64,000 bases of DNA from an uncultured Verrucomicrobiota bacterium. Its GTDB lineage: Bacteria > Verrucomicrobiota > Verrucomicrobiia > Limisphaerales > J093. The notes below the pieces were generated by a model. That model saw only the letters and a program-made list of their open reading frames with translations, had not been told where the DNA came from and searched no databases. Each line of letters starts with the position of its first letter. Positions within the stretch are counted from its first letter, which is position 1. Of this stretch, positions 10,844 to 53,725 are shown one piece after another. A program made the position numbers and the translations under genes. The stretch is from the NCBI GenBank assembly GCA_964472515.1, contig CAYYMW010000001.1, positions 33,528 to 97,527 of the forward strand. The letters run 5' to 3'.

Positions 10844-11411
10844 TGCGGACCGGCAGGACATGGCCCGGCTGGCTGCCGGCTATGACGCGAGCCTCAACAA
10901 GTTGATGGACCGGCACGGGGAGCGGCTGTTTCATTACTTGCTGCGGTTGCTACGGAACGAGTCTGACGCCACGGACATCGCTCAGGAGAGCTTTGTCCGG
11001 GTTTATCAACACCGGGCCGAATTCGATGGCGAGCGCCGGTTCAGCACCTGGCTTTACACCATCGCGACCAACCTGGCGCGGGACCGCCATCGCTGGCGGG
11101 ATCGGCGCCCGGAAGTTTCTCTGGAGAATGAGAATGCCGAAACGGGGCAGAGCTTCCGGGATCGTCTTCCCGAGCCGAACGCTGATCCCAGCCAGAGTCT
11201 CGTCGTGAAAGAGCGCGGCGATCTTGTGCGACAGGCCGTAAGTGCCTTGCCGGAAGACTTGCGTGTGCCTCTGGTCCTGTCCGCGTATGAAGAACAGTCG
11301 CACGCAGAGATCGGCACGGTGCTCGGTTGCACCGCCAAGGCCGTCGAGATGAAACTCTACCGTGCCCGGCACGAGTTGCGAAAGCGCCTGGCTCTGGTGT
11401 TTGCGGTTTGA
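10815..11411 (+). CDS. ECF sigma factor, triad 2
   Basis: 198 aa. 'DIAQESFVRVY', 'FSTWLYTIATNLARD' and 'GCTAKAVEMKLYRARHELRKRL'. Overlaps the sensor gene by 29 nt. Confidence 0.9.
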   Translation: MTPAPPNTDDADRQDMARLAAGYDASLNKLMDRHGERLFHYLLRLLRNESDATDIAQESFVRVYQHRAEFDGERRFSTWLYTIATNLARDRHRWRDRRPEVSLENENAETGQSFRDRLPEPNADPSQSLVVKERGDLVRQAVSALPEDLRVPLVLSAYEEQSHAEIGTVLGCTAKAVEMKLYRARHELRKRLALVFAV

Positions 11412-19045: not shown

Positions 19046-20542
19046 ATGAGTAAGAGCAAATGGTATTGGCTCTTCGCCGGGGTCGGCACTGTTGCCGCAG
19101 CGATGCTATTTTCCGGCTGCAGGGGCCTCGCCGTTAAGGGCGAGAAGGAGGCGCGGCAGAAGGTCAAGGACGTCAGCGAGCAATACCGCCCGAAGGGCCA
19201 GAAGCCGGAACTGCCCGCTCTGACCAGCCAGTCCAGCCTCAGCAACTTCCTCACCTACGCGCTGCTGAATCAACCCAAGGTCGAGGCCTCGTACTTCGAC
19301 TGGGTCGCTTCAGTGGAGCGAATTACGGTGCAACGCTCCAAACCGGACCCGCAACTCACCTTCCAGATGGACATCCAGGACGTGGTCACCTCCCTCATGC
19401 CGGGCCTCATGATGAGCTTTCCGGGAATGGGCAAGCTCCGCGCCGCCGGAGCCGTCGCCGCGGCGGCCAGCCAGGGCGGTTACTTCACGTTCAGGGCAGC
19501 TTCACTCCAGAGCGCTTACGACGTGAAGCGGACTTACTACCGCCTCTATTTCCTGGATGAAAAAATTCGTGTCAACCGCGAAAACCTCGGCCTCCTGCAA
19601 GAGTTGGAGCGCCTGGCCCGCTCTCAAAATGAAGTCGGCAAGGCAACCTTGCAGGATGTCTTGCGCGCGCAAATCGAACAGGAACGCCTCAACAACGAGA
19701 TCGCCAACCTTGAGGATTCCCGCGCGCCCCTGCTGGCCCAGTGGCAGGCCGCTCTCGGCATCCAACCGAACGACCCGGCGCCTCCAGTCCCGACCCGCTT
19801 TGAATCCACCCCGCTCGACGTGGCGGCGGACAAGTGGCTGGAGCAGGCGCTGGCGGAGAACACTCGCCTCAAGGCTATGGCCGCCGACGTCCACGCCGCC
19901 GAGGCCGCCATCCGCCTCGCCTACAAGGCGCGCATGCCGGACACTAGCGTCGGTTTCATGGCCGACGCCAAGATGAGTCCGGTCCTCTACCGCCCGTGGG
20001 GCACCGTCAGCATCCCGTTGTGGCGCGACAAGCTCGCCGCCCAGGTGGCCGAGGCCCAGGCCAACAAGCGCGCGGGCGAGGCCCGCCTCACCGCGGAACA
20101 GATCGGCTTGGCCGTGGACGTCGCCGAACGCGCCTTTGTTTATCGCGAGACCACGCGCAATCTGAACGTCCTCCAGAAGACGTTGCTGCCCAAGCAGCGC
20201 CAGTCCCTGGAACTGGCCCGCTCGGCCTACCTCTCCGGGCAGGTGGACTTTCTGAATGTGACCGAAGCGGAGCAGACCTTGCTGAGATTCAACCTCGACG
20301 AAGTCGAGGCCCGCACGCAGCGGGAGCTGTCGCTCGCCGAGCTTTCCCTGATCATGCAGGGCATGCCCCCCTCCGGCGGAGGCGCCACGGGCATGGAAAT
20401 ATCCTCGCCGGGCATTGGCGCTGGCAAGAATATGGGCGGCGGGGCGTCCTCCAGCGGCATGGGTTCCAGCGGCGGCACCATGCTGCCCGGAAACTCCGCA
20501 CCGCCTCCGAAGAAGATGAACCAGGGAGGGATGAGCCAATGA
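19046..20542 (+). CDS. cusC: outer-membrane efflux lipoprotein (TolC/CusC family) with Met/Gly-rich tail
   Basis: Start at ATG 19046 gives the lipobox 'MLFSGC'. Two OEP-like repeats. C-terminal ~60 aa 'MQGMPPSGGGATGMEISSPG...GMGSSGGTM...NQGGMSQ'. Confidence 0.8.
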   Translation: MSKSKWYWLFAGVGTVAAAMLFSGCRGLAVKGEKEARQKVKDVSEQYRPKGQKPELPALTSQSSLSNFLTYALLNQPKVEASYFDWVASVERITVQRSKPDPQLTFQMDIQDVVTSLMPGLMMSFPGMGKLRAAGAVAAAASQGGYFTFRAASLQSAYDVKRTYYRLYFLDEKIRVNRENLGLLQELERLARSQNEVGKATLQDVLRAQIEQERLNNEIANLEDSRAPLLAQWQAALGIQPNDPAPPVPTRFESTPLDVAADKWLEQALAENTRLKAMAADVHAAEAAIRLAYKARMPDTSVGFMADAKMSPVLYRPWGTVSIPLWRDKLAAQVAEAQANKRAGEARLTAEQIGLAVDVAERAFVYRETTRNLNVLQKTLLPKQRQSLELARSAYLSGQVDFLNVTEAEQTLLRFNLDEVEARTQRELSLAELSLIMQGMPPSGGGATGMEISSPGIGAGKNMGGGASSSGMGSSGGTMLPGNSAPPPKKMNQGGMSQ

Positions 20543-22506
20543 GTGGGTTGAAGATTTTACCTATGAAGATTCGAATCCAAAGCGGCCGTGTGGCTGCATT
20601 TCTCGTGGCGTTGCTGCTGATCGGCGGCGGCGCGGGCGTGCTGTTGACCGGGTGCGGCGGCGATCACGGGACCGCCGGCCAGGCCAAGGCAGAGCAGCTT
20701 TACACCTGCGGCATGCATCCGCAGGTCATCCAGGACCATCCGGGCAACTGCCCCATCTGCGGCATGAAGCTCACGCCCGTGCGCAAGCAGGGCAGCGCGC
20801 CCGCGGCAACGCCCTCGGGCCAGCGCAAGGTGAAGTTCTACAAGTCCACGATGAATCCGGGCGAGACGAGCCCGGCGCCCGCCAAGGACAGCATGGGCAT
20901 GGATATGGTGCCGGTGTACGAAACAGAGGGCGGCGCGAGTGACTCCCAGATCATCAGCATTGAGCCCATGACGATGCAGGATATGAATATCCACACCGCC
21001 ACGGTCACGCGTGGCCCCTTGCGCCGTCTGGTGCGCACCGTCGGTGTGATTGATTACAACGAGGCCGGCCTCGCCGATGTCACCACCAAGTTCAAAGGCT
21101 GGGTCGAGAAGCTTTACGTGGACACCACCGGCCAGCAGGTTCATCGCGGTGAGCCGCTCTTCGAGATCTATTCCCCGGAGCTTTACAGCGCCCAGCGGGA
21201 ATATGTGCTCGCGCTGGAGGGCGCCAATTCCCCCGGCGGCGCCGCGCTCAAGGCCAGCGCCCGCACCAAGCTCAAGTTCTTCGACATTTCCGACGAGCAG
21301 ATCGCCGACCTCGAACGCACCCGCGAGCCCCGCAAGACGCTCCGCGTCGTCGCCCCGCAGGACGGTTTCGTGGTGGAGAAGCTGGTCGTGGAAGGCCAGA
21401 TGGCGGACGCCGGCATGAAACTCTACCGGCTGGCGGACCTCGGGCTGGTCTGGGCGCAGGCGCAGATCTACGAGCAGGATCTCGACTACCTGAAGCTGGG
21501 ACAGGAGGCGACGGTAACGCTTTCTTACCTGCCTGACCGCGAATTTCGGGGCCGAGTGACCTACATCTATCCGAGCGTGGATGAAAAGACCCGCACGGCG
21601 CGCGTCCGCATGGAGTTCCACAACCCCGGCTACTTCCTCAAGCCCGGCATGTTTGCCACCGTTCAGGTCCTCTCCGAACTCGCCCCTTCGGTCCTGCTGG
21701 TGCCCGACATGGCGATTCTGCGCAGCGGCGCGAAGAACACAGTGTTCCTCGCGCTGGAAGGCGGCCGGTTCGAGCCGCGCACCGTCGTGCTTGGACCGCA
21801 GGCCGAGAATGACACGTACCAGATTCTCAGCGGCTTGACCGAGGGCGAGCGCATAGTCACCTCCGGCCAGTTCCTCCTCGATTCCGAGAGCCAGCTCCGC
21901 CAGGCCATCCAAAAGATGAGCGGTCCCAAAGGCGCCGCAGCCGTTGCGACCGACGGCCATGAAGGTCACGGCACCATGGGAGTCACCGCGACAACCCCTC
22001 CGCCGCCAGCCATCGGCACCGCCGGCTCGCAAACTAACCTCTTCAAGTACATCTGCCCCATGCCCGAACACGTCTCCATCCAATACGACCACCCCGGCAA
22101 ATGTTCCATCTGCGGCATGGCCCTGGTCCCAGTCTCGGGCGCGGCCCTCCACAAGCTCCAACCCGGCGGCAAGCTGCTTTTCTACACCTGCCCCATGCCC
22201 GAGCACGCCGACGTTCACGAGACCAAACCCGGCAAGTGCCCCAAATGCGGCATGACTCTAATCCCGGTCATGGAAGCCCCGCCGGTCGCTCCCTCAACCC
22301 TCAACCCTCAACCCCCAACCACTCTGCTCTACACCTGCCCCATGGCGTCCGACGTGGACGTCGTCTCCGACAAGCCCGGCAAGTGCCCCAAGTGCGAAAT
22401 GGACCTCGTGCCGACCAGCACCGTGTCCCACGGCAAAATTGCGGAGGAGAACTGGCGCAAGCAGCATCCGCCCGGCGCGCCGCCGGCTCCCGAGCACCAA
22501 CACTGA
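20539..22506 (+). CDS. cusB: RND periplasmic adaptor (CusB-like) with four HMBD-type CxxC metal-binding modules
   Basis: Start at ATG 20539, with an ATGA overlap with cusC. N-terminal 'YTCGMHPQVIQDHPGNCPICGMKL' precedes the MFP core. C-terminal modules are 'YICPMPEH..PGKCSICGM', 'YTCPMPEH..PGKCPKCGM' and 'YTCPMASD..PGKCPKCEM'. Confidence 0.85.
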   Translation: MSGLKILPMKIRIQSGRVAAFLVALLLIGGGAGVLLTGCGGDHGTAGQAKAEQLYTCGMHPQVIQDHPGNCPICGMKLTPVRKQGSAPAATPSGQRKVKFYKSTMNPGETSPAPAKDSMGMDMVPVYETEGGASDSQIISIEPMTMQDMNIHTATVTRGPLRRLVRTVGVIDYNEAGLADVTTKFKGWVEKLYVDTTGQQVHRGEPLFEIYSPELYSAQREYVLALEGANSPGGAALKASARTKLKFFDISDEQIADLERTREPRKTLRVVAPQDGFVVEKLVVEGQMADAGMKLYRLADLGLVWAQAQIYEQDLDYLKLGQEATVTLSYLPDREFRGRVTYIYPSVDEKTRTARVRMEFHNPGYFLKPGMFATVQVLSELAPSVLLVPDMAILRSGAKNTVFLALEGGRFEPRTVVLGPQAENDTYQILSGLTEGERIVTSGQFLLDSESQLRQAIQKMSGPKGAAAVATDGHEGHGTMGVTATTPPPPAIGTAGSQTNLFKYICPMPEHVSIQYDHPGKCSICGMALVPVSGAALHKLQPGGKLLFYTCPMPEHADVHETKPGKCPKCGMTLIPVMEAPPVAPSTLNPQPPTTLLYTCPMASDVDVVSDKPGKCPKCEMDLVPTSTVSHGKIAEENWRKQHPPGAPPAPEHQH

Positions 22507-22521
22507 GCGCCAAGGACTACC

Positions 22522-25500
22522 ATGCTCAAAGGCATCATAGACTTCTCGCTCAAGAATCGGTTCATCGTCCTGCTGGGGACGCTGGCCCTGGTGCTGGGCG
22601 GGGTGTACGCGGTGAAGAACATCCCGCTGGACGCCATCCCTGACCTGTCCGACGTCCAGGTGATCGTTTACACCGAGTGGCCCGGCCAGGCACCGCAGAT
22701 TGTCCAGGACCAGGTGACCTATCCCCTCACCACCAAGATGCTCTCCGTCCCCAAGGCGAAGGTCGTCCGGGGCTATTCCTTCTACGGCTTCTCTTTCGTG
22801 TACGTCATTTTTGAGGACGGCACCGATCCCTATTGGGCGCGCACACGCGTGCTCGAATACCTCAGCGGCATGAGTGGCCGCTTGCCTGCCGGAGTCTCCC
22901 CCAGCCTCGGCCCGGACGCGACCGGCGTCGGCTGGGCCTTCATGTATTCCATCAATTCCACCAATCGCGACCTCGCCGAACTCCGCTCCATGCAGGACTG
23001 GTATCTGCGTTACCAACTGGCCGCCGTCGAAGGCGTCGCCGAGGTGGCCTCGATTGGCGGCTTCGTGCGCCAATACCAGGTGACCGTGGACCCAACCAAG
23101 CTCCGCGCCTACAACCTCTCCATCTCCGAAGTCGCGATGGCCGTGAAGCGCAGCAACGGCGAGGTCGGCGGTCGCTCCATTGAACTGGCGGAAAAGGAGT
23201 TCATCCTGCGCGTGCGCGGCTATGTCAACAAGCTGAACGACCTGCGCAAGGTCACCGTGGGCCTCGGCGACAAGGGAGTGCCGATTCTCCTGGGCCAGGT
23301 GGCGGACGTGCAGTTCGGCCCGGACATGCGCCGCGGCATCGCCGAACTCAACGGCCGGGGCGAAACTGTCGGCGGTGTCGTAGTCGTCCGCTATGGCGCC
23401 AACGCGCGCCAGGTCATCCTCGACGTCAAGAAGAAGCTCGATCAGGCCATGAAGGGCTTGCCCTCCGACGTGACCTATTCCATCGCCTACGACCGCAGCG
23501 CCCTCATCGAGCGCGCCGTCAAGACGCTGGAGGAGAAGCTCATCGAGGAAAGCATCGTCGTGGCGCTGGTGTGCCTCGCGTTTCTCATGCACCTCCGCAG
23601 CGCCTTCGTCGCCATTGTCATCCTCCCCATCGCCGTCCTCATCTCCTTCCTCGTCATGTTCGGCCAGGGCATCAGCTCCAACATCATGTCCCTCGGCGGT
23701 ATCGCCATCGCCATCGGCGCCATGGTGGATGCCGTCATCATCATGATCGAGAACGCCCATAAACACATGGAGCATGACCAGGGCAAGAAGCCCCATTGGG
23801 ACATCATCCGCGACGCGTCCGTCGAGGTCGGCCCGACGCTCTTCTACTCGCTGCTGGTCATCACCGTCTCGTTCTTCCCGATCTTCATGCTCACCGAGCA
23901 ATCCGGCCGCATGTTCAAGCCGCTCGCCTTCACCAAGACCTATTCCATGGGTGCGGCGGCCATCCTCTCCATCACTCTGGCCCCGATCCTCATGGGTTTC
24001 TTCATCCGCGGCAAAATTCCGGCCGAGGAGAAGAACCCGATCAACCGCTTCCTCATCTGGCTCTACCATCCGGTCATTGATTTTGTCATCAAGTGGCGCT
24101 GGGCGGTCGTCACGCTCGCCGCCGCGCTGATCGTCTGGGTCTTTTTCCCCTGGAACAAACTGGCGGCCCGGCTGCTGCCGGACGGTCCCGCCAAGGAGTG
24201 GGCCTTCAAGGTCGGCAAGATATTCCCCTACCAGAACCTCGGCTCGGAATTCATGCCGCCCCTCTACGAAGGCGACCTGCTCTACATGCCCACCACCTTC
24301 CCGGGCCTAGGTGTCACCGAGGCGCGGGCCATCCTCCAGCAGACCGACAAGATCATCAAGACGTTCCCGGAAGTGCACCACGTCTTCGGGAAAGTCGGCC
24401 GGGCCGAGACCGCCACCGACCCCGCGCCGATGGACATGATTGAAACCACCATCATGCTCAAGCCCGAGAAAGAATGGCCGGTCGTGGACATCAAGGACGC
24501 CGACGGCAAGGTCATCGCCCATCGCCGCCGCACGCCCGACGAGCTGAGCGACGCCATGAACGCCGCCATCCAGTTCCCCGGCCTCAACAACGCCTGGACC
24601 ATGCCGATCAAGACCCGGACCGACATGCTGGCCACCGGCATCAAAACCCCTGTCGGCATCAAGATCGCCGGCTCGGACCTGGCGGAGCTCGAACGCATCG
24701 CCTCCGAGGTCGAGGCCGTCGTCAAAACCGTCCCCGGCACCCTCAGCGCCTTTGCCGAGCGCACCATGGGCGGCAATTACATCGAGTTCAACATCGACCG
24801 CGATGCCATCTCCCGTTACGGACTCAACGTCGCCGACGTCCAGGACGTTCTTGAAGTCGCCCTCGGCGGCATGCCGCTCACCACCACGGTCGAAGGCCTC
24901 GAGCGCTACGGCGTGAACCTGCGCTATAGCCGTGACTTCCGCGAGAACCTGGGCGCCCTGCGCGAGATCGTTATCCCCACCCCCACCGGCGCGCAAATTC
25001 CTCTCGGCCAGGTCGCGAAAATCGAGACCGTTCGCGCCCCCATGGGCGTAAAGAGCGAAGGCGCCATCCCCAACGCCTGGATCTACGTGGACGTGAAGGG
25101 CATCGACGTCGGCACTTATGTGCAGATGGCCATGCGCGCCGTCAATGAGGCCGTCGCCAAGGGCGAGATCAAGCTCCCCAGCGGCTACAACATCTTCTGG
25201 AGCGGCGAATACGAATACATGCTCAAGGCCCAGCAGCGCCTCATGATCGTTGTGCCGCTCACCCTCCTCCTCATTATCCTGATCATTTACCTCAACACCC
25301 GCTCGGCCATCAAAACCGCGATTGTCATGCTCGCCGTCCCCTTCTCGCTCGTCGGCGCCATCGGCATCCTCGCCCTGCTTAACTACAACCTCAGTGTCGC
25401 CGTGTGGGTCGGCATCATCGCCCTGGCCGGGCTCGACGCCGAAACCGGCGTCGTCATGCTCTTGTACCTGGACCTCGCCTACGAGGACTGGAAGAAACGC

Positions 25501-25812
25501 GGCCTCATGGGCAACCTCGCTCACCTCCGGGACGCCATCTATCACGGCGCCGTCAAGCGTGTCCGTCCCAAGGCCATGACCGCCTGCGTCATCGTCGCCG
25601 GTCTCGCCCCCATTCTCTGGAGCCACGGCAGCGGCGCCGACGTAATGAAGCGCATTGCCACCCCGATGATTGGCGGTGTCATAACCTCCACCCTCATGGA
25701 ACTCCTCGTCTATCCTGCCATCTATTACATCTGGCGCTCCCGGACGATCCGGCATCAAACCCAACTGCCGCCAGCGGCAGCGACCGCGGCCCAACCGGAG
25801 CCGGCACATTGA
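22522..25812 (+). CDS. cusA: heavy-metal efflux RND pump, CusA-like
   Basis: 1096 aa. N-terminus 'NRFIVLLG...[38 protein letters not shown]' closely parallels E. coli CusA. 12-TM RND architecture. Confidence 0.95.
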   Translation: [1096 protein letters not shown]

Positions 25813-25840: not shown

Positions 25841-26071
25841 ATGAGCATTGAAGACACCATCGGCTACCAACCGGACGTGCCGACGTGCGTGGTGTGCGGC
25901 AAGAATGTGCAGGGTGACCGGGGCTTCGCTCGCATCAACCACCACGGCACGATGCTCAATCTTTGCTGTCCGCACTGTCTGGAAACATTTCAAAGCGATC
26001 CTTCTCCCTATCTGGCGCGGCTCGTAAAAGTCGAATTCCAGGACGCGTTGAAAACGGCAGTGAAAAGCTGA
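25841..26071 (+). CDS. TRASH-type Cys4 mini-protein
   Basis: 76 aa. 'CVVCGK-x20-CCPHC' gives C-x2-C-x22-C-x3-C, matching the TRASH spacing. Starts 28 nt after the cusA stop. Confidence 0.7.
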   Translation: MSIEDTIGYQPDVPTCVVCGKNVQGDRGFARINHHGTMLNLCCPHCLETFQSDPSPYLARLVKVEFQDALKTAVKS

Positions 26072-26085: not shown

Positions 26086-26625
26086 TTAATGAGCCGACTT
26101 GTCGTCGCAGGTGCAGTCGAGGCAACCGTGTTTGCTGCACGCGCGGCAGTCGCGGGTGAGTTGTTCGCGAAGATGTTTGCGGGCGCGATGCAAGCGGACG
26201 GTGAGATTGTTTCTGGACACGCCAAGTTCGGCTGCGACCGCCGCGACATCTTTTCCGTCCAAGTCCACGCGTTGAAGCAATTCGCGGTATTGCTCCGGCA
26301 CGGCAGGCAATAACCGTCTGAAACATTGGCAGAGCAACCGCTCGTCTTGCGCGCTCGGGATTTCGGGCAATTCGCGTTGAACCTTTTCCAACGCACGGGC
26401 GCGGGCGTCATTGCGTCGGTAAAGGTCAATGATGGAACGGCGCAGAATCCGGTAGAACCACGCGACAGTGTCCTGTTCGCCGACCGGCTGGCGGGCTGAG
26501 GCCAGTGCCTTAACCAAGCTTTCCTGCACGACATCTTCCGCCAGATGCGGGTCGGCGAGCCGCTTTCTCGCGAATGCCACGAAGGTTTGCAGGTTCTTGA
26601 GGATCGCATCGGTCGCCGATTCCAT
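26086..26625 (-). CDS. CorE-like ECF sigma factor with C-terminal Cys-rich extension
   Basis: 179 aa. Sigma regions 'AEDVVQESLVKAL' and 'VSRNNLTVRLHRARKHLREQL'. Internal 'CQC' plus tail 'DCRACSKHGCLDCTCDDKSAH'. No adjacent anti-sigma gene. Divergent from copA. Confidence 0.75.
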   Translation of the reverse strand: MESATDAILKNLQTFVAFARKRLADPHLAEDVVQESLVKALASARQPVGEQDTVAWFYRILRRSIIDLYRRNDARARALEKVQRELPEIPSAQDERLLCQCFRRLLPAVPEQYRELLQRVDLDGKDVAAVAAELGVSRNNLTVRLHRARKHLREQLTRDCRACSKHGCLDCTCDDKSAH

Positions 26626-26759
26626 GGGGTTTAGTATAGCTTTCCGTCAACGAGACGGCAACGGAGTCGAGCCAGTGAAGATTTGGTGTAATGAATCCAA
26701 AGGTCGTGCGTTAGCTTGGATGAGGGCGCGAACGGAGCGTCCCCAACGAAAGACTGATT

Positions 26760-29300
26760 ATGGCAAAAGACCCAATCTGTGGCATGACGGTGGATGAATC
26801 CTCGCCGCTTCAAGCGGTGCGTGACGGACAGACGTTCTTTTTTTGCAGCGAGCATTGCCGCCAGACATTCCGCGCACAGAAACATGCGACAACATCCGCA
26901 CACGATGGCGAACTTTCTTGTTGCGATGGCGGCAGCCGCCATGAGCCAGAGCACGCTCACGAGAAAGAGGGACACTCTTGCTGCCACGGCAAGTCTGGCG
27001 ACCCGCACGCGATTCATCATCACCACCATCACGGCCACAAACACCCAGCGGTGACGCCCTCCGCCGCCGCGAAATACTTCTGCCCCATGTGCCCTGGCGT
27101 CGAGTCGGACCAGCCGGGCGATTGTCCGAAATGCGGCATGGCGTTGGAACGCAACCCCGCGTGGAAACCCGCGCCGAAAACCATCTACACCTGTCCCATG
27201 CACCCGGAGATCGAGCAGGATCATCCCGGCGATTGCCCCAAGTGCGGCATGGCGCTTGAGCCAAAAACCGTCGCCGCCGAGAGCGACGCGGAGGAGGACA
27301 ATGCCGAGTTGCGCGGTATGACCCGCCGTTTCTGGATCGGCACGGCGTTGACCTTGCCCGTGTTCATCGTGGCGATGGCGCATCTCATTCCCGCGTGGAG
27401 CCACGCCGAATGGTTGAGCGGCGAGATTTCGCGCTGGGGACAATTCATTCTCAGCACGCCAGTCGTCTTGTGGGCAGGCTGGCCGTTCTTCGTGCGCGGC
27501 GGACGTTCGCTCGTGAACCGCAGTTTGAACATGTTCACGCTCATCGCGCTCGGTGTCGGCGCGGCCTACGCCTTCAGTGCCGTGGCCATGTTCTTCCCGC
27601 AGGCATTTCCGCCCGCAGCGGGCCACAGCGGCAAACCGGCAATCTATTTTGAAGCGGCTGCCGTCATTACAGTGCTGGTGTTGCTCGGTCAGGTGCTGGA
27701 ACTCCGCGCCCGCCAGCGCACCAGCGGCGCGATCAAAGCCTTGCTCGGCCTCGCGCCAAAAACCGCCCGGCGCGTCACCGCAAACGGCGACGAGGACGTT
27801 CCGCTCGATGCCGTGCATCCGGGTGACTTGCTGCGAGTGCGTCCCGGTGAAAAAGTTCCCGTGGACGGTGAAGTAGTCGAAGGCCGCACGTCCGTTGATG
27901 AATCCATGCTCACTGGCGAACCATTGCCGGTGGAAAAGACCGTTGGCGCAAAAGTCTCCGGCGGCACGGTGAACACAACCGGCGGCATCGTCATGCGCGC
28001 TGAACGTGTCGGCAGAGAAACGATGCTCGCGCAAATCGTGAACCTCGTCGCCCAGTCTCAACGCAGCCGCGCGCCGATTCAAGCGCTGGCGGACAAGGTT
28101 GCCGGTTGGTTTGTTCCGACCGTGCTGGCGATTGCCGCGCTCACTTTCTTCGCGTGGTTCGTTTTTGGGCCAGAGCCGCGACTCGCCTTCGCCATCACCA
28201 ATGCCGTCGCCGTCCTCATCATCGCGTGTCCGTGTGCGCTCGGACTCGCCACGCCGATGAGTGTGATGGTCGGCATCGGTCGCGGCGCACAAATGGGTGT
28301 GCTGATTCGCAACGCCGAGGCTATCGAAAAGCTGGCTCTACTGGACACTCTCGCCGTGGACAAAACGGGCACACTGACCGAGGGCAAACCCAAACTGGCG
28401 CAGGTGTTGCCCGTTGGCGGGATTGATGAGCAGGAATTACTGCGTCTCACCGCTTCGCTCGAACAAGGCAGCGAACATCCGTTGGCTCACGCTGTCGTCA
28501 TGGCTGCTCGCGAAAAAGAACTTCCGCTCGAAGCCGCGAAGGATTTTCAGTCCACCACCGCAGGCGGCGTGGCGGGCACTATTACAGGCCGCAGAGTGCT
28601 GGTTGGCAAACCCGACTTCCTGCGCGAGAACGGAGTCACCGACATCTCAGCGCTCGAATCGCTCGCCGCTCCCCACCAGGCCGAAGGCGCGACGGCCATC
28701 TTTGTCGCCGTTGATGGCCGCGCCGCCGGAGTTTTGACCGTGGCCGACCCGGTGAAAGCCACCACTTCGCAGGCGCTTGCCGAATTGCATGAGCTTGGCG
28801 TGAATGTCCTGATGCTCACCGGCGACAATCCGCGCACCGCCGAAGCCGTTGCGCGCAAGCTCGGCATTGCTGATTTTCAAGCGGGCGTCACTCCGCACGA
28901 CAAACACGAGAAAGTCAAAACGCTCAAGGCAGCGGGCCGGATCGTCGGCATGGCTGGCGATGGCATCAATGACGCGCCCGCCCTGGCCGCCGCCGATGTG
29001 GGCATTGCGATGGGCACGGGCACGGACATCGCGATGGAGAGCGCCGGTGTCACGCTCGTCAAAGGCGACCTGCGCGGCATCGTGCGAGCGATCAAGCTTG
29101 GCCGCGCCATGATGGGCAACATCCGGCAAAACCTTTTCTTCGCGTTCGTCTATAATGCGCTGGGGGTTCCCGTCGCGGCGGGCTTGCTCTATCCGTTCTT
29201 CGGCCTGCTGCTCAGTCCCATCATCGCGGGCGCTGCCATGAGCTTGAGTTCGGTTTCTGTAATCAGCAATGCTCTGCGCCTACGCCATACGCGGTTGTGA
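26760..29300 (+). CDS. copA: Cu(I)-translocating P1B-type ATPase
   Basis: 846 aa. N-terminal TRASH/YHS 'DPICGMTV...FFFCSEHC', a His-rich stretch and two HMBD modules. '[10 protein letters not shown]', 'DKTGTLT', 'GDGINDAP', TM 'YN' and 'MSLSS' point to the P1B-1 class. Confidence 0.95.
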
Positions 29301-29335
29301 AATGAAACCCGGTAGAACTTAACGTAAATGACCTG

Positions 29336-29834
29336 TTGCAAAAGCCCGGATACGCTCATGCTCTGTTGAACCACCTGCCCATCATCGGGCTGGCGGTCGC
29401 CGGGTCGGCGCTCGTCGTTGCGCTCGCCTCCAGGAACCGCGGGACGGTATTGGGCAGCTTGATGCTCGTGGCGGTGATGGCAACCTCGGTCTGGCCGGTG
29501 ATCAAGTCCGGCGAGTCCGCCTACAACCGCATTCGCGCCATCTCGGACTCCGAGGGCGCGTCGCTCTTGAAACCGCACATGCTCATCGCAGATCGCTGGG
29601 CGTGGCTTTACTACCTCGTGGCCCCTGGCTGCGGCCGTGGCCCCTCTGGCGGTATGGAAGCGTCCTGAGAAACTGCGGTGGTTTGGAATTCCCGTTGCCT
29701 TGCTGGCCGCGGCCAACCTGATGGCGGGCGGGGTCGTGGCCAAACTGGGCGGCGAAGTCCGGCACCCGGCATTCCGCCTCGGCTCGACGCTTGTGCCTCC
29801 AGATCTGCCGACGAACCACGACCATGAGCCATGA
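29336..29834 (+). pseudogene. family-B membrane protein interrupted by an apparent +1 frameshift
   Basis: ORFs 29336-29668 and 29637-29834 together align to all of 18454-18954. Removing one C from the CCCC run at 29622-29625 restores the frame, giving 13 residues between 'YY' and 'WK' in both paralogs. Confidence 0.55.
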
Positions 29835-30148
29835 GCATGAGCACGCGCACTGAAACTACTGCGCCACACTGCTCAGTTATGTCAAAACAACCTGCCAACC
29901 AACCCGGGAGCAGACCGCTCCCGCTGCTGGCCGTCGGATTCTTCATCGGTGGCCTGATTACCAGCACCATCGTGACGCTCGAAATCGTTCCCGCCATATA
30001 TTCCCTCTGGCGCGGGCGGCAGGTGGAATGGGTGAAAGGCCCAAAACCCCCTCACAAGAAGTGGGAGGATTTGAGCATGCAATTCATGGAGTGGGAGAAA
30101 CAGGCGTACAAGGAGTCCTTGCCGGCTCAAGCCGAGTCAAGGTCCTGA
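29831..30148 (+). pseudogene. CusA C-terminal (TM12-like) relic or small derived membrane protein
   Basis: 'AVGFFIGGLITSTIVTLEIVPAIYSLWRGR' parallels the CusA end '[27 protein letters not shown]' at 25660-25750. The ORF is only 105 aa. ATGA overlap with the preceding ORF. Confidence 0.45.
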
Positions 30149-30194
30149 GCGGGTGATCGGCGCAGGCGCTTGCCTCAATCTCGGCCAAAAAGTT

Positions 30195-30222
30195 TGCGGG
30201 GAAACACCCGCTGCGGTGTAGG
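30195..30222 (+). promoter_or_regulatory. degenerate ECF-type promoter copy J (TGCGGGGAAAC-N11-TGTAGG)
   Basis: Same spacing as the other copies. Spacer ACCCGCTGCGG matches the copy C spacer CCCCGCTGCGG at 10 of 11 positions. Lies 66 nt upstream of ATG 30288. Confidence 0.3.
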
Positions 30223-30287
30223 CAGTAACGAAGGCGGCCACGGCGGCTGCCAGTGAAACCAGAAAACAAATTGAAAGAGACCATCGT

Positions 30288-30740
30288 ATGAAGAGCATCA
30301 AGAACATTGGCAACTACCTGACCCGTGGAACACTCATCGTGGCCGTGGCCGGCCTCACCCTCCTGGCCAACAGCGCTGTGGCCCAAGAGAAAGGCGGCGA
30401 GCGCATGATGAAGCTGCTCCGCCTCAATACTGCGGCGGACGTGCAGAAGGTGGAAGCGGGCGACACCATCGTCATGTCCTGCCCGAAGTGCAAGGACACC
30501 TGGGTGAAAGTTGTTCAGCCGATGGGCAAAGGCGGGCGGCAGGAGACGGCGAACATCCAACGACACGAATGCCCTGGCTGCGACACGAAGATTGTGACCG
30601 AAGGCGTGGGCAAGCAGGCCAAGAGCGTGGTAAAGCACACCTGCAAGCAGTGCGGCAGCGAGGACATGTCCTGCTGTGTGATGAAGAAAGGTGCTGGCCC
30701 GACCCCAGGCATGGACGAGCACAAAGGGCATCAACATTGA
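30288..30740 (+). CDS. secreted 8-Cys (3x CxxC + CC) protein, family A
   Basis: 150 aa with a signal peptide. 'MSCPKCKD', 'RHECPGCDT' and 'KHTCKQCGSEDMSCC'. His-rich end 'DEHKGHQH'. Confidence 0.65.
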   Translation: MKSIKNIGNYLTRGTLIVAVAGLTLLANSAVAQEKGGERMMKLLRLNTAADVQKVEAGDTIVMSCPKCKDTWVKVVQPMGKGGRQETANIQRHECPGCDTKIVTEGVGKQAKSVVKHTCKQCGSEDMSCCVMKKGAGPTPGMDEHKGHQH

Positions 30741-30761
30741 CAGCGTGATCTCCCCAGCGTT

Positions 30762-30790
30762 TTGGACATCAAACCAATCCATGATAGTGT
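30762..30790 (+). promoter_or_regulatory. possible sigma-70-type promoter (TTGGAC-17-TAGTGT, TG-extended)
   Basis: AT-rich 62-nt gap before ATG 30803. Hexamers read by eye only. Confidence 0.25.
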
Positions 30791-30802
30791 ACACGCATTC
30801 TT

Positions 30803-31816
30803 ATGCACATACAGCAATCTCGGTCCAGTATGAGTGCAGGCACAACTCACTTCCGGCCAGCGATGGCGACGCTGTTGCTCGCTCTGGCCTTCACGATATC
30901 GGCGCACGGCCAGAACTGGATGACGAATGGTCTGGTCGCCCACTACCCCATGCATGGCGATGCCACTGATGTCAGCGGCCATGGGATGCACGGGAGGATC
31001 ATGGGGACGCCGATGATGGTCACCAACCGGTTTGGAGAGCCAGGCCACGGCATCGCTTTCGCCGGGGGCATGGACGCGATCATGCTCACCAACCTGAACG
31101 TGAACATGGTCACGAACAGTCAGAACACCGTCTGTCTCTGGATGCGCTGGGACGGTGGGGTCAACGGAAGCACGAATCCTGTTGCCATGCCGTTTGGCTG
31201 GGGGAACACAAATCAGAATTATTGTTTGCTCTTCCAGCAGGAAGGCAACGGCCGATTTGGATTCAGCGGGGGCATGGCCGATGTCTATGGCACGGATTAC
31301 GGCCCGATGCTCTCGAACCACTGGGTTCAGGTGGCGGCAGTTTTCAACAACGGGAACATGATGAACTCCGGGCTTTACATCAATGGGCAGCGGATGACGG
31401 GTTCGATGACGGTCGGCGGGATGCCGATGGGCATGGGGATGATGGTGCAGCGGAGCGCACATCCGATGGCGTTCCTCGGGGGATTCGGCGGGCAGGGATC
31501 TGTCCCGTATCAGTTCTTCGGGGCAATGAGCGACGTTCGCATCTACAACCGGGCGCTTACCGCCGAAGAAATCACGGCGCTATTTGGGATGGAAGCCGCT
31601 CCCTCCCTCCGGATGATGGCAGGAAGCACGGCAGGCACTGCAAATCTGGAGTTCAGTTCGATGATGATGGGTTGGCAATTCCAGATGCAGTCCTCCAGCG
31701 ATCTGACCCACTGGACGAACTATTCCGATATGTTCATGCCCACTCCAGGCACGATGGTTCGCACGGTCAATTCAGGAGGGCCACACATGTTCTGGCGGTT
31801 GCAGGCCAGCCCATGA
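30803..31816 (+). CDS. secreted Met-rich LamG/concanavalin-like lectin-fold protein
   Basis: 337 aa with a signal peptide. LamG-type 'MSDVRIYNRALTAEEI'. By my count 38 Met (~11%), in clusters such as 'GGMPMGMGMMV' and 'HGMHGRIMGTPMM'. C-terminal beta domain ends 'MFWRLQASP'. Confidence 0.7.
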   Translation: MHIQQSRSSMSAGTTHFRPAMATLLLALAFTISAHGQNWMTNGLVAHYPMHGDATDVSGHGMHGRIMGTPMMVTNRFGEPGHGIAFAGGMDAIMLTNLNVNMVTNSQNTVCLWMRWDGGVNGSTNPVAMPFGWGNTNQNYCLLFQQEGNGRFGFSGGMADVYGTDYGPMLSNHWVQVAAVFNNGNMMNSGLYINGQRMTGSMTVGGMPMGMGMMVQRSAHPMAFLGGFGGQGSVPYQFFGAMSDVRIYNRALTAEEITALFGMEAAPSLRMMAGSTAGTANLEFSSMMMGWQFQMQSSSDLTHWTNYSDMFMPTPGTMVRTVNSGGPHMFWRLQASP

Positions 31817-31881: not shown

Positions 31882-33519
31882 ATGAAGACAAACCGCAGAC
31901 AATTCATTGGGCGCACAGCGCAAGGCGCGGCGATGGTCGCGGCGGGGATGCAGTTCCTGCCGCTTACCCGGTTGCGGGCGCAATCCGTGCGTTCGGGCAA
32001 TCCGTTGCGATTCCCCGCTGACTGGGCTGGCGGCTCGTTGACCGTGGCCCGCGCCAATCTCGCCATCTGGCCCGGCTATTCCACGGCGGTATCTGCCATC
32101 AACGGGGGAGTCCCCGGCCCGACGATTCGCGTCCGACGCGGCGAGGAGTTTGCGGCGCGCGTCCAAAACAACCTGGGCGAACCCTTGGTGCTCCATTGGC
32201 ACGGAGTGTTAGCCCCGGAACGGATGGACGGTCACCCGCGCGACCAAGTCGCCGCTGGGCAAAGCTACGAAGTCCAATTTCCCGTCCGCCAGCGCGCCAG
32301 CACTTGCTGGTATCACGCGCACACGGACCAACTGACGGCAGAGCAGGCTTACGCGGGTGTGGCCGGTTTCTTCATCATCGAAGACCCGGCGGAAGTGGCC
32401 TTTGGTTTGCCTTCGGGCAGCCATGATGTGCCGCTCGTGTTCATGGACAAGCGGGTCAGCGCCTCTCGTCAACTGGTCTATGCGCCGTCCATGATGGACG
32501 TGATGAGCGGCTATCTGGGAGACGTGATGCTCGTTAACGGCACGCCTGACCCTTGGCTGTCAGTTGACCGCGGCCTCTACCGGCTCCGGCTGTTGAACGG
32601 CTCGAACGCCCGCATCTACAAAGTGGCGCTGAGCGATGGCCGACCGTTTCACCTCATTGCTACGGATGGCGGCCTGCTGGCCGCTCCCGTGTCCGTAACT
32701 TCGGTAATGCTCGCGCCCGGACAGCGTTTGGAAGTCCTCGTGGATTTCTCGGTTTACGCGGTTGGTGCGTCGGTTGTGCTGAAGAGCCTCAGCTTCCCTG
32801 GTGGCGGAGGCATGATGGGTGGTCCGCAGCAGGGGACGGAGATGGACTTGTTGCGCTTCTACGTGGATAGCGCCGCGACCGGCAATGCAACCGTTCCGGC
32901 GACGCTGCAACCGTTCACGCCCCTCAACCCGGCACAAGCCCGCCGCACGCGTGTCTTCACGCTGGCCATGTCCGGCATGGTTCACACCATCAACGGGCAG
33001 CTTTTCAACATGCAGCGGACCGACTTCAGCGTTCCGTTCGGTGACGTAGAGATTTGGGAATACCGGAACACCGGCACTGAGCCCCATCCGATGCACGCGC
33101 ACGCGGCGCTTTGCCAAGTGTTGAGCCGCAGCAGCGCGGCGACGCTGCCGCCCGAAGATGCCGGCTGGAAAGATACTGTGCTGGTGAATCCGAGCGAGAC
33201 GGTGCGCGTCCTGACGCGCTTCGACACCCATTCCGGATTGTTCGTGCATCATTGCCACAACCTCGAACACGAAGACTCGGGGATGATGCAGAACTTTGAG
33301 GTGCTCCCTCCGCCCACGCTCGCCGTCCAACGCGACGGAACAAGTGTGACCCTCTCGTGGCCGGAAGCGGAACAAGGTTGGCGATTGGAATCGTCCGCTG
33401 AGACGAGTGGCGCGGCTTGGGATTTGGTGGCCCAGAACCCCACCCTGGTCGGCGGTCGCTGGACGGTGACAGTCAGCGAGACAACGGGCCGGCGTTTTTA
33501 TCGGCTGGTCAAGCCATGA
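31882..33519 (+). CDS. multicopper oxidase (CueO/PcoA-like), Tat-exported
   Basis: 545 aa with Tat motif 'NRRQFIG'. Copper-site motifs 'HWHG', 'WYHAH', 'HPMHAH' and 'HCHNLEHEDSGMM'. An extra C-terminal ~65-aa domain ends 'RFYRLVKP'. Confidence 0.9.
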   Translation: MKTNRRQFIGRTAQGAAMVAAGMQFLPLTRLRAQSVRSGNPLRFPADWAGGSLTVARANLAIWPGYSTAVSAINGGVPGPTIRVRRGEEFAARVQNNLGEPLVLHWHGVLAPERMDGHPRDQVAAGQSYEVQFPVRQRASTCWYHAHTDQLTAEQAYAGVAGFFIIEDPAEVAFGLPSGSHDVPLVFMDKRVSASRQLVYAPSMMDVMSGYLGDVMLVNGTPDPWLSVDRGLYRLRLLNGSNARIYKVALSDGRPFHLIATDGGLLAAPVSVTSVMLAPGQRLEVLVDFSVYAVGASVVLKSLSFPGGGGMMGGPQQGTEMDLLRFYVDSAATGNATVPATLQPFTPLNPAQARRTRVFTLAMSGMVHTINGQLFNMQRTDFSVPFGDVEIWEYRNTGTEPHPMHAHAALCQVLSRSSAATLPPEDAGWKDTVLVNPSETVRVLTRFDTHSGLFVHHCHNLEHEDSGMMQNFEVLPPPTLAVQRDGTSVTLSWPEAEQGWRLESSAETSGAAWDLVAQNPTLVGGRWTVTVSETTGRRFYRLVKP

Positions 33520-35849: not shown

Positions 35850-36062
35850 ATGAAGACGAAAATGACTCTGAAACTCGCCGCGCTGGCGAGTGTTGTGGCC
35901 GTGGCGCTGTTCGCCGGTTGCAAGAAGCAGGAAACCCATAGCGAGCATGATGGTCATGACCACTCCGGCCATGCTCCCGCCAAAACCAACTCGCCCGCCG
36001 CAGATGATCATCAGGGCCATAACCACGGCCCGGGCGAGCACGCTCCTGCACCCGCCAAGTAA
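35850..36062 (+). CDS. His-rich small lipoprotein
   Basis: 70 aa with lipobox 'LFAGC', followed by 'HSEHDGHDHSGH...DDHQGHNHGPGEH'. Confidence 0.6.
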   Translation: MKTKMTLKLAALASVVAVALFAGCKKQETHSEHDGHDHSGHAPAKTNSPAADDHQGHNHGPGEHAPAPAK

Positions 36063-36087
36063 ACAAGTGAACGACAAACAAAAGACT

Positions 36088-37365
36088 ATGACAACACTGA
36101 CGATTTCCAAGATGACCGTTCTGCCGCTGGTGGCGGCGGTGACTCTACTGACGGCCTGCTCCAAGCAGAGTGAACCCGCAGATGACGGACACGGGCACGG
36201 CGCAGGCGGACATGGCGAGGCCAAAGCCCATGTCGAAACCAAGGATGGCGTGGAGATGTGTACCGAGCACAACGTGCCGGAAGCGCAATGCGGCATCTGC
36301 AAACCGCAACTGGCGGGGACACTGAAACCTGGCGAGTCGGCGAAGGTGCGACTGGCCGCCAAAGACTCGGCCGCCATCGCCGGCGTGCAGACGGACACTC
36401 CGACCGTAGGGACGATTGCCGACGCGGTGGAGTGCTACGCCGAACTGGCGTTCAATCAGAACAAGCTGGCCCAGATTGCCGCGCCGGTGGGCGGTATCGT
36501 GCAGGCCGTGGAAGTGGACCTCGGCAGCAAGGTCGAGGAGAAGCAGTGCGTGGCGAACATCTGGTCGGCGGCCATTGCGGAAGCGGTGGCCAAATCGGTG
36601 CTGACGCATCAGACGCTGGACCGCGAGCGCAAGCTGCGCGCCGACCGCGTGACCTCGGAGAAAGACTTGCAACAAGCCGAGGCGGAACATCGCTCCGCCT
36701 GCCAGCAAGCGCGCACGTTCGGTTTCAGCGAGGAAGACATCAACCGGATGGGGGGGAAGCCCAATGACCCGGTGTATCTGGAAGTGCGCGCGCCTTTTGC
36801 GGGTGAAATCGTCGAGCGCAACGTCGTGCGTGGTGCGCTGGTGGAAGCCGGCAAATCGTTGTTCACACTGGCGGATCGCTCCACCATGTGGGCGATGCTG
36901 AACCTTCCTGAGTCGGCGTTGGCCCGCGTGAAAGTAGGGCAAACGGTGGAACTGAGGGTGGAATCGCTGCCGGGCCAGATGTTCACCGGGAAGCTGACGT
37001 GGATCGGGGCGGAAGTGGACGAGAAGAGCCGCATGGCTCGCGCTCGCGCCGAGGTGGCGAACCCCGATGGGTTGCTCAAGTCCAGGATGTTCGCCCAAGC
37101 CCGCATCCTGACACGCAACGCGGAGGGCGCACTGTTGTTGCCGTCCTCGGCCATTCAGCGCATGGAAGGGAAGAGCTATATCTTCGTGAAAGTGGAGGAC
37201 GATTTATTTGACGCTCGCGCGGTCCGTCTCGGGGCCAAGTTCGACGGCAAGGTGGAAATCGTCGAGGGCCTGAAGGCGCAAGAAGTGGTGGCGGTGAATC
37301 ATGCCTTCCCGCTCAAGTCCGCCTTCCTCATTTCCCGGCTGGGCGCGGGTTGCGCGGATGACTAG
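36088..37365 (+). CDS. czcB: RND periplasmic adaptor (CzcB-like)
   Basis: Start at ATG 36088 gives lipobox 'LLTAC'. His-rich 'DDGHGHGAGGHGE' and 'CTEHNVPEAQCGICKP' precede the MFP core. The track extension from 35890 overlaps the previous gene. Confidence 0.85.
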   Translation: MTTLTISKMTVLPLVAAVTLLTACSKQSEPADDGHGHGAGGHGEAKAHVETKDGVEMCTEHNVPEAQCGICKPQLAGTLKPGESAKVRLAAKDSAAIAGVQTDTPTVGTIADAVECYAELAFNQNKLAQIAAPVGGIVQAVEVDLGSKVEEKQCVANIWSAAIAEAVAKSVLTHQTLDRERKLRADRVTSEKDLQQAEAEHRSACQQARTFGFSEEDINRMGGKPNDPVYLEVRAPFAGEIVERNVVRGALVEAGKSLFTLADRSTMWAMLNLPESALARVKVGQTVELRVESLPGQMFTGKLTWIGAEVDEKSRMARARAEVANPDGLLKSRMFAQARILTRNAEGALLLPSSAIQRMEGKSYIFVKVEDDLFDARAVRLGAKFDGKVEIVEGLKAQEVVAVNHAFPLKSAFLISRLGAGCADD

Positions 37366-37399
37366 GCCGAGAGCGACCATCACCTGAAAGACCTATACC

Positions 37400-40300: not shown

Positions 40301-40537
40301 CCAGTCCTGATGACGGCGCTGGTGGCAGCGGTGGGCTTCATCCCAATGGCGGTCAATGTGGGTGTGGGCGGTGAAGTGCAACGCCCGCTGGCGACGGTAG
40401 TCATCGGCGGCATCTTCACGAACACGTTGCTGACCTTGCTGGTGCTGCCGACGCTCTACACGACGTTCCGGCGCAAGAAGCCCGCTGAAGTGCCAGCCGA
40501 GCCGCAGACCCTGACCCCGGAGAACTCAATAATATGA
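37400..40537 (+). CDS. czcA: heavy-metal efflux RND pump, CzcA-like
   Basis: 1045 aa. N-terminus 'NRLLVAIL...PIDAFPDTTPVQVQINT' is of the CzcA type. 12-TM RND architecture. Confidence 0.95.
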   Translation: MLNWLIKTSLKNRLLVAILASVLVLVGGRSLTNLPIDAFPDTTPVQVQINTTLPSLNAEEAEAQVTIPVELAISGLPGLNNIRSVSKFGLSQVVATFDDDTSIFRARQLITERLQTIELPPGIARPQLGPISTGLGEVFHYVVRSDNTNRTLLELREIQDWVVKPQLRKVRGVAEVNTWGGFEKQFHVITEPQRLVKYGLTLEQLFEALEANNQNVGGGQVVRSGESLLVHGLGLTTNVQEIGSIVIASYDGTPVRVRDVAEVKVDHEIRRGAVTGAGKGEIVLGLGFMLMGENSAVVTHGLKDKLAEVQKTLPKDVVVEVLYDRTELVDNVIETVKHNLLAGALLVIAILFAFLGNLRAGLVVAASIPLSMLFAGDLMLQAGISASLLSLGAVDFGLIVDGSVVMVENAMRRLAMRQHELGRLLTKEEREETLTSASLEVARPVAFGVGIILIVFLPILALEGVEGKLFKPMALTMIFALAGSLILALTLTPVLAALFLPKQVKEKEPWLVRLSHRLYEPALGLALRFRALVLVGALALLVGVLLLASRMGGEFLPKLGEGAIVGTTVRLAGVSVEEAVAYNTRIEKLLLAEFPDEITNIWSRLGSAEIATDPMGIELTDFFLALKPRAQWKKARTQTELVDKMRELFTKFPGMTVAFSQPIEMRLNEMIAGVRSDVAIKIYGDDLETLRRLSDEVQAILGGISGRGEVTGEQLVGQLILQVRVDPQAIARYGVPTRNVLNVVEAVGSRKVGEIREGQRRFSLVVRMPDRQRTDPDALAATLIPTATGSVLPLNQVAQVVETEGPSTINREWGRRRITVQCNVRGRDVGSFVAEAQKKIADLVKLPEGYSIEWGGQFENMQRANAKLMFVVPMALGLIFVLLYFSLKSLRDVFIVATGIPLGAVGGVLALWLRGMPFTVSAAVGFIALSGVAILNGLVLVTFIKQKLDAGEPLEQAVREGCMVRLRPVLMTALVAAVGFIPMAVNVGVGGEVQRPLATVVIGGIFTNTLLTLLVLPTLYTTFRRKKPAEVPAEPQTLTPENSII

Positions 40538-47618: not shown

Positions 47619-47751
47619 CCCTTCTTCCGGTTCTTCGCGCCATTCTTCGGCGAGCTTGGCCCGTCTCTGCCTGAACGCCTCACAGGCGGAATCTCAATCC
47701 AATCCGGGCACATTTACTTTGGGGCAAAATCCATGTCGGTGGTCAGTTTGT

Positions 47752-53720: not shown

Positions 53721-53725
53721 CACAC

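Follow-up and report, generated by a model that had tools for sequence, protein, structure and literature searches.

A CorE-like sigma factor with a cysteine-rich tail, a candidate copper-responsive activator of copA in an uncultured bacterium of the Verrucomicrobiota

Sigma factors of the CorE type, classed as group ECF44 of the extracytoplasmic function (ECF) sigma factors, have a domain rich in cysteine at the C-terminus (CRD) and a CxC motif, both essential for activity, and operate with no anti-sigma factor (PMC3107203, PMC4937300, PMC6851896, PMC8999054). In CorE of Myxococcus xanthus (MXAN_3426), the copper-dependent founder of the group, the CxC motif lies at residues 120/122 and the CRD cysteines at 181, 184, 189, 192, 194 and 206 (PMC3107203, PMC4937300). 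Four of these, residues 181, 184, 192 and 194, form the family-invariant pattern C-x2-C-x7-C-x-C; Cys189 is the main residue for activation by copper and occurs chiefly in members that lie within copper-gene neighbourhoods, and Cys184 is required for inactivation (PMC3107203), while Cys206 is dispensable. With the change C184A, CorE is constitutive. In CorE2 (MXAN_5263), a Cd/Zn-dependent ECF44 member from the same organism, Cys174 directly follows the second CRD cysteine and sets Cd/Zn specificity, a position at which CorE has Ala185 (PMC4937300, PMC6851896). The CxC motif is essential in both proteins (PMC4937300), and the length of the CRD in the family ranges from 21 to 50 residues (PMC6851896). 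Here we describe a sigma factor gene of this type, adjacent to a copper ATPase gene (copA), in a 64,000-nucleotide stretch of DNA from an uncultured Verrucomicrobiota bacterium (contig CAYYMW010000001.1; hereafter the window).

A sigma factor of the CorE family beside copA

The sigma gene occupies positions 26086-26625 of the minus strand, stop codon included, as delimited from the open reading frame (ORF) listing, Pfam matches and homologues. Its product contains a sigma-2 domain at residues 10-73 (26407-26598, minus strand; PF04542, Sigma70_r2, E 3.6e-12), in which the AED core-binding motif of region 2.2 is normal, and a sigma-4.2 region at residues 100-152 (26170-26328, minus strand; PF08281, Sigma70_r4_2, E 2.8e-12). 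These are the only two Pfam domains in the protein, which also scores 80 bits with TIGR02937, the general ECF model, and so passes its cut-off of 42.9. A CxC motif, C99-Q-C101, lies at the boundary between the linker and sigma-4 (26323-26331, minus strand), and the C-terminus is formed by a cysteine-rich domain at residues 160-179 (26089-26148, minus strand; DCRACSKHGCLDCTCDDKSAH), in which the cysteines are arranged as C160-x2-C163-x4-C168-x2-C171-x-C173. A previous sequence-only reading of this locus had described a 179-aa sigma factor with normal sigma-2 and sigma-4 regions, an internal CQC and a tail of the form C-x2-C-x4-C-x2-C-x-C; the ORF, the Pfam matches and the residue positions of all seven cysteines confirm this description.

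We compared the protein with CorE and CorE2 by published residue numbers rather than by alignment. The distance from the CxC motif to the first tail cysteine is 61 residues (99 to 160), equal to that from Cys120 to Cys181 in CorE, and the tail offsets of 0, 3, 8, 11 and 13 reproduce CorE Cys181/184/189/192/194 exactly. The tail also fits the published CorE string Cys184-x4-Cys-x2-Cys-x-Cys (PMC9023288). Thus, all four family-invariant CRD cysteines are present (C160, C163, C171 and C173), and C168 is the equivalent of CorE Cys189. The residue directly after the second tail cysteine, at the metal-specificity position of CorE and CorE2, is Ser164; like CorE, the protein therefore has a non-cysteine there, although CorE itself carries Ala185. 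CorE has the same sigma-2 and sigma-4 architecture and likewise lies in a copper island with no linked anti-sigma factor. It differs in its host, a myxobacterium rather than a member of the verrucomicrobial lineage, and in its longer tail of 38 residues and six cysteines, as against about 20 residues and five cysteines here. CorE2 shares the scaffold with its essential CxC and CRD, but its tail reads C173-C-x3-C-x2-C-x-C, with the specificity-setting Cys174 in place of the serine.

Full-length alignments with sigma factors from other organisms are consistent with this comparison. Verrucomicrobium spinosum DSM 4136 is among the hosts of the 21 CRD sigma factors listed in the original CorE study (PMC3107203), and V. 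spinosum, Phenylobacterium zucineum and Roseobacter litoralis were chosen as hosts named there, their proteins being matched by organism and not by accession. The V. spinosum protein WP_009960598.1 is 53% identical to the window sigma factor over 176 residues, that is, over its full length. It shares both the CQC and the C-x2-C-x4-C-x2-C-x-C tail, but has Ala, not Ser, after the second tail cysteine. Plasmid-encoded sigma factors of P. zucineum, R. litoralis and Candidatus Manganitrophus also align at full length through the tail. When all these proteins are aligned, C99, C101, C160, C163, C171 and C173 are invariant and C168 is present in most.

The cysteine pattern is widely conserved. A word-indexed search returned 1376 homologues at E<=1e-5, the named ones among the best being from Verrucomicrobia. 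In 31 relatives of 65-84% identity all seven cysteines are invariant, and an additional HCH is present at the C-terminus in many of these close relatives. When 1.84 billion cluster representatives (50% identity) were searched with a profile, 214 clusters were obtained at E<=1e-30; the pattern C-x2-C-x7-C-x-C was found in 125 of the 150 best representatives, nearly all of them with a CxC exactly 61 residues upstream. At the specificity position these 125 proteins have mostly Ala, then Ser or Thr, and in only two cases Cys. A scan of species-representative genomes yielded 365 coding stretches, and the best 80 of these came almost entirely from metagenome-assembled genomes of Verrucomicrobiota (Limisphaerales, Pedosphaera, Luteolibacter, Chthoniobacterales and others). 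With seven cysteines invariant in the relatives and the motif in 125 of 150 representatives, the pattern is not a chance arrangement. The family is therefore large in Verrucomicrobiota and has an almost invariant cysteine scaffold. Within the window, we found no second CorE-like sigma factor and no other C-x2-C-x7-C-x-C stretch in any frame.

Placement of the protein in ECF238 (formerly ECF44) is indirectly supported by its best specific NCBIfam matches, which are models of SigZ, itself a member of ECF238 (PMC7826278). This group unites ECF24 with ECF44, and its defining feature is a short C-terminal extension that contains cysteine (PMC7826278; Casas-Pastor et al. 2021); about 85% of its members have no CxC motif (PMC8999054). 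The matches to SigZ (TIGR02959, E 6.5e-27) do not reach the equivalog cut-offs, with 94.4 against 168.65 bits for TIGR02959 and 86.1 against 212 bits for NF007215, and SigZ of Bacillus subtilis has only two C-terminal cysteines, compared with five here. OrbS of Burkholderia cenocepacia senses a metal through an on-board C-terminal cysteine cluster and needs no anti-sigma factor, as we propose for the window protein. However, OrbS belongs to a different ECF clade, its cysteines are spaced C-x2-C-x3-C-x5-C instead of C-x2-C-x4-C-x2-C-x-C, and its metal, Fe(II), inhibits rather than activates (PMC9023288). For an assignment made from sequence, membership of the window protein in the CorE family is solid. 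The proposal that this is a CorE-type ECF sigma factor is thus supported by the spacing of CxC and tail, by the full-length alignments with sigma factors from listed hosts, and by a conserved linkage to copA.

The copA gene (26760-29300, plus strand), the predicted target, is identified as encoding a Cu(I)-type P1B ATPase from its Pfam domains, from the NCBIfam copper P1B-ATPase model TIGR01511, which it passes with 584 bits against a cut-off of 397, and from its conserved adjacency to the sigma gene. In CopA a YHS domain is located at the N-terminus, and the protein also has a His-rich stretch and two heavy-metal-binding (HMBD) domains. As the earlier reading had stated, the sigma gene and this Cu(I) ATPase gene share a divergent intergenic region of 134 nt (26626-26759), for which ORF boundaries and an intergenic alignment place both promoters inside. 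To count linkage, the window proteins were mapped onto 86 related loci, almost all from Verrucomicrobiota and a few of them redundant. In about 64 of the 86, copA lies directly beside the sigma gene, divergently in about 55 loci and co-directionally, sigma gene first, in 9. The co-directional loci form a subgroup whose sigma factors are 50-55% identical to that of the window, and which includes the V. spinosum protein; in the related Verrucomicrobium loci L064 and L066 the sigma gene likewise adjoins copA.

No flanking anti-sigma candidate had been noticed at this locus, and a Pfam scan of the neighbours bears this out: no anti-sigma domain was detected in the TRASH/YHS-type protein encoded on the 3' side of the sigma gene, its sole neighbour there, or in the small ORFs that follow copA. 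Nor was an anti-sigma gene seen in the related loci inspected.

Predicted promoters of copA and of the sigma gene

Alignment of 30 distinct sigma-copA intergenic regions revealed two conserved elements, (G/C)TGTAA(T/G) and, after 16 nt, TGCGTT(T/A)GC, both directed toward copA and followed by a conserved GGTGA. In the window, the -35-like element of this predicted CorE-like-dependent copA promoter is TGTAAT (26687-26692, plus strand), within which TGTAA is invariant in the 30 distinct sites. The -10-like element is GCGTTAGC (26708-26715, plus strand), recognised by its invariant GCGTT and its fixed gap from the upstream element; it contains CGTTAG, which begins 16 nt after TGTAAT. The whole motif spans 26687-26714, about 45 nt upstream of copA, and the gap from TGTAA to CGTT is 17 nt in 38 of 38 sites. 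A promoter of the form GAATCC-N10-CGTTAG had been suggested earlier, with low confidence, from inspection of this region. The string is present at 26693-26714 and its CGTTAG half coincides with the conserved -10-like element, but its -35 assignment does not stand: GAATCC (26693-26698) falls within non-conserved spacer columns of the intergenic alignment and was rejected. We know of no ECF promoter that uses a 10-nt spacing between -35 and -10.

The motif is strongly associated with the sigma gene. TGTAA-N15-17-CGTT has 65 matches in 747 kb of related loci, distributed over 60 of the 86, whereas the chance rate in the window, 0.33 per 64 kb, would predict about 4. Approximately 58 of the 65 matches share one relative position, from which they are directed toward the gene beside the sigma gene.

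Loci with other gene arrangements carry the motif at correspondingly different places. In the co-directional subgroup (L061-L083; for example L064 at about 4950-4983, L066 and L081), TGTAAT-N16-CGTC lies about 12 nt upstream of the start codon of the sigma gene itself. This implies an autoregulated sigma-copA operon version of the module, with CGTC in place of CGTT at the -10 position, and autoregulation of the V. spinosum sigma factor, unlike what the divergent layout of the window would predict. In loci without a divergent copA (L039, 5556-5783; L028, 5558-5805; L015, L025, L032 and L033), the motif is found just after the sigma stop codon and precedes an ORF of 42-50 aa encoding a Cys-rich metallothionein-like product (e.g. 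...CQCGGSCSCEQGGCNCTPCTCKG), which is followed by a gene for a membrane protein resembling isoprenylcysteine carboxyl methyltransferase (ICMT). The window itself contains no metallothionein-like small ORF of the kind seen in these sibling loci.

TGTAA(C/T)-N16-CGTC also occurs beside the CorE-like sigma genes of the plasmid loci from Alphaproteobacteria and Nitrospirota, namely those of P. zucineum, where the motif is upstream of a universal stress protein gene, R. litoralis and Ca. Manganitrophus (L087, 3195-3220, minus strand; L088, 5592 and 9041, plus strand; L089, 5423 and 5479, plus strand). These occurrences suggest that the motif belongs to the CorE-like family as a whole; in the form TGTAA(T/C/G)-N16-CGT(T/C), before copA or a metallothionein-like gene, it is sharply defined and spans phyla. 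CorE sites in M. xanthus were defined by AAC at -35, with a conserved G lying 16-18 nt downstream of it (PMC3107203). CorE promoters, with their AA(C/T)-type -35 and a G-containing -10 at that distance, are compatible in geometry with the window motif.

The sigma gene appears to have a promoter of another kind. A consensus scan and conserved columns of the intergenic alignment point to a sigma-70-type promoter, TTGCCG-17 nt-TATACT (26633-26661, minus strand). Its predicted -10 ends 7 nt before the ATG, and the mRNA is thus probably leaderless or nearly so. Of 51 upstream regions, taken from the window and 50 related loci, 38 have an equivalent element 4-10 nt before the start codon, often a GTG, so that the mRNAs of these sigma genes, too, are probably leaderless. 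No ECF-type motif directed toward the sigma gene was found in the intergenic alignment of the divergent arrangement. We infer that the sigma gene is transcribed constitutively by the housekeeping sigma factor. The sigma-70-type promoter fits the observation that expression of corE and corE2 is largely independent of metals (PMC6851896). CorE2 resembles what we predict for the window system in this metal-independent expression, and also in regulating a neighbouring metal-efflux gene; corE is partly autoregulated, whereas the sigma gene of the window apparently is not.

Proposed mechanism and alternative explanations

We consider it probable, at roughly three chances in four, that this protein is a CorE-type one-protein metal sensor and transcription activator that drives copA in response to copper. 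In the scheme that we propose, the sigma factor would be made constitutively, in an inactive state, from a leaderless mRNA transcribed from its own sigma-70-type promoter. When cytoplasmic copper rises, metal would be bound jointly by C160, C163, C168, C171 and C173 of the tail and by C99-x-C101 of the linker, and this would bring sigma-2 and sigma-4 into a conformation able to work with RNA polymerase. The resulting holoenzyme would start transcription at TGTAAT-N16-CGTTAG (26687-26714) and turn on copA and probably also the small membrane-protein gene just after it. The scheme requires no anti-sigma factor. Copper as the ligand, the motif as the cognate promoter and the transcription start sites are all deduced from sequence features and gene context. 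Copper is favoured over Cd or Zn because the partner gene encodes a Cu-type ATPase, because Cus-type and multicopper oxidase genes are close by, and because the equivalent of Cys189 is present and the CorE2-type cysteine absent. The known targets of CorE are the P1B ATPase genes copB and copA and a multicopper oxidase gene; those of CorE2 are a CDF pump (cation diffusion facilitator) and a Kelch/glyoxal-oxidase protein, and do not include copA.

Several observations weigh against this reading. AlphaFold2, run with 31 sequences, predicted ordinary ECF helices (pTM, the predicted template modelling score, 0.44), but the last two residue blocks of the tail had a pLDDT (predicted local distance difference test) of only 53 and 39, which lends no structural support to a joint metal site of CxC and tail. 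In a PDB search no solved structure spanned the tail; the best match was SigH, which covers residues 18-157 only. The tail, at 20 residues from its first cysteine to the C-terminus, is at or just under the published range and has no counterpart of the sixth CorE cysteine, Cys206, although counting from the end of sigma-4.2 gives about 23-27 residues, so that the length depends on the domain start chosen. Ser164 is the residue of neither CorE nor CorE2. No copies of the motif were found at the cusBA and multicopper oxidase genes of the island, so that the regulon in the window may consist of copA alone, in which case other regulators must exist. Finally, the window has a second exact motif match, TGTAAA-N16-GCGTT (59066-59091, minus strand), between the integrase and RadC genes, with no plausible target ORF within about 150 nt. 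Two or more matches arose in 5 of 100 shuffles, and this match is probably due to chance; it may otherwise be an orphan promoter.

The alternatives to a copper-activated CorE-type sensor are, taken together, unlikely, and each on its own is more so. One is a CorE2-type sensor whose tail would bind Zn(II) or Cd(II), or else a different thiophilic metal, for instance Ag(I), with copA forming part of a broader metal response; we regard this as improbable. CorE and CorE2 have the cysteine scaffold in common, specificity being switched by one residue (PMC4937300), and the serine at that position matches neither model protein. However, the cysteine that follows the second tail cysteine in CorE2 is missing here, as it is in all but 2 of the 125 representatives. 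Besides copA, the window encodes another P1B ATPase, a CDF transporter and two more resistance-nodulation-division (RND) systems, possibly for Zn, Cd or Co, and Ag(I) affects the activity of CorE (PMC3107203). Yet in about 64 of the 86 loci the conserved partner is the Cu-type ATPase, which passes TIGR01511; the genes immediately around are of the Cus and multicopper oxidase types, and C168 is in place.

We give equally little credence to a set of explanations in which the cysteines would either make up a structural Zn site or act as a thiol redox switch of the ZAS (zinc-binding anti-sigma) type, or in which metal inhibits the sigma factor as Fe(II) does OrbS; the output would then be an oxidative or thiol-stress response, or a switch-off by metal. 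The CRD and CxC have been described as reminiscent of ZAS motifs (PMC6851896), the CorE authors themselves raised thiol modification as a possibility (PMC3107203), and copper stress and thiol oxidation are hard to tell apart. The conserved targets, though, are a copper exporter and a metallothionein-like ORF, not thiol-repair genes, and deletion of the CRD or mutation of the CxC inactivates the sigma factor in both family members studied (PMC4937300). As for metal-dependent inhibition, it is mediated in OrbS by the C-terminal cysteine cluster (PMC9023288), but the spacing of that cluster differs from the tail described here, and a metal-inhibited sigma factor in front of a copper exporter would harm the cell. 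The last alternative, an ordinary ECF sigma factor held by an anti-sigma factor encoded elsewhere, with an incidental Cys tail, is conceivable on sequence alone, as the CorE authors noted for their own protein (PMC3107203), and the window does contain a second ECF sigma factor with possible partner genes (10815-11411), but it is very improbable given seven invariant cysteines across hundreds of clusters, which argue for function, the lack of an anti-sigma domain among the neighbours, both here and at those related loci that were inspected, and the finding that CorE stayed inactive when overexpressed without copper, which speaks against an anti-sigma factor being titrated (PMC3107203).

Accepting a CorE-type copper sensor, we also considered a more far-reaching version, in which the verrucomicrobial clade would represent a minimal, self-contained and mobile copper switch, mechanistically unlike CorE of M. 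xanthus. Its elements would be the 20-residue, five-cysteine tail with Ser at the specificity position, and constitutive production of the sigma factor from a leaderless mRNA. Activation may be directly by Cu(I), rather than through the cycle of CorE, in which Cu(II) turns the protein on and Cu(I) turns it off. In addition, the sigma gene and the promoter, together with the 5' end of copA, which encodes the metal-binding region, may travel and recombine as one cassette. The cassette idea comes from a change in DNA identity to two sibling loci (L055 and L060) inside copA, at about 27026. Positions 27026-31583 of the window are 92-94% identical to these loci, while cusBA, the TRASH gene, the sigma gene, the promoters and the 5' end of copA are about 73% identical or cannot be aligned, and identity between the sigma proteins is 59%. 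A recombination breakpoint is thereby suggested near 27026, where it would divide the core of CopA from the metal-binding region at the N-terminus. As a whole, we find this extended version doubtful.

CorE-like proteins form a recognised ECF group, and two verrucomicrobial members were already listed in the 2011 CorE paper (PMC3107203). A literature search did not find a study of verrucomicrobial CorE-like sigma factors. Apparently new are the two arrangements of sigma gene and copA, the predicted leaderless expression of the sigma gene from a sigma-70-type promoter, a metallothionein-like gene as a putative alternative target and the size of the verrucomicrobial clade; whether the definition of the promoter motif and its conservation across phyla are new as well is uncertain. 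We see the outcome as a solid annotation and a useful experimental handle rather than a surprise. The results offer a compact list of parts for experiments or biosensor design, comprising a sensor-activator of 179 aa, a promoter some 30 bp long and, at the specificity position, a natural Ser/Ala/Thr/Cys series. They also give copA of the window a candidate regulator, in an island that has no CueR or CusRS genes nearby: among the ORFs scanned, no MerR/CueR or CusRS gene was found near copA. The other regulators in the window scan are a lone receiver domain (42766-43188) and an ordinary ECF sigma factor, the one at 10815-11411 mentioned above.

The surrounding metal island

The window is a heavy-metal resistance island with three RND efflux systems (19996-25812, 35890-40537 and 47656-53720, the last with an outer-membrane factor) and two P1B ATPases (26760-29300, which is copA, and 44370-46592). 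It also has genes for a multicopper oxidase (31882-33519) and a CDF transporter (53639-54682). Next to these lie genes for a relaxase-like protein (54848-57700), for RadC (58074-58700) and for an integrase (59207-60760), and the island (19996-57700 and 58074-60760) is probably an integrative mobile element.

The closest neighbours of the sigma gene and copA include cusBA and the multicopper oxidase gene. Directly after cusA, and convergent with the sigma gene, lies the gene for the TRASH/YHS-type metal-binding protein of 76 aa (25841-26071, plus strand; PF24273, E 3.5e-6), which is found near the sigma gene in many related loci. It may belong to the Cus operon as a small cytoplasmic protein that binds copper or acts as a chaperone. 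TRASH, Cus-type RND and multicopper oxidase genes recur near the sigma gene in the related loci, as does a gene for a secreted Cys/His-rich protein of 150 aa. The 150-aa protein (window, 30288-30740, plus strand; L001, 6579-7028) gave no match in Pfam; its N-terminus resembles a signal peptide, its end is rich in His and Met, and it has several CxxC pairs. In several related loci its gene is located immediately downstream of the sigma gene, in convergent orientation.

A gap of 620 nt separates the small gene after copA from the gene for this 150-aa protein. It contains a 105-aa ORF (29831-30148, plus strand), ending ...GGLITSTIVTLEIVPAIYSLWRGRQ..., which by eye looks like a C-terminal remnant of a CusA-type RND pump.

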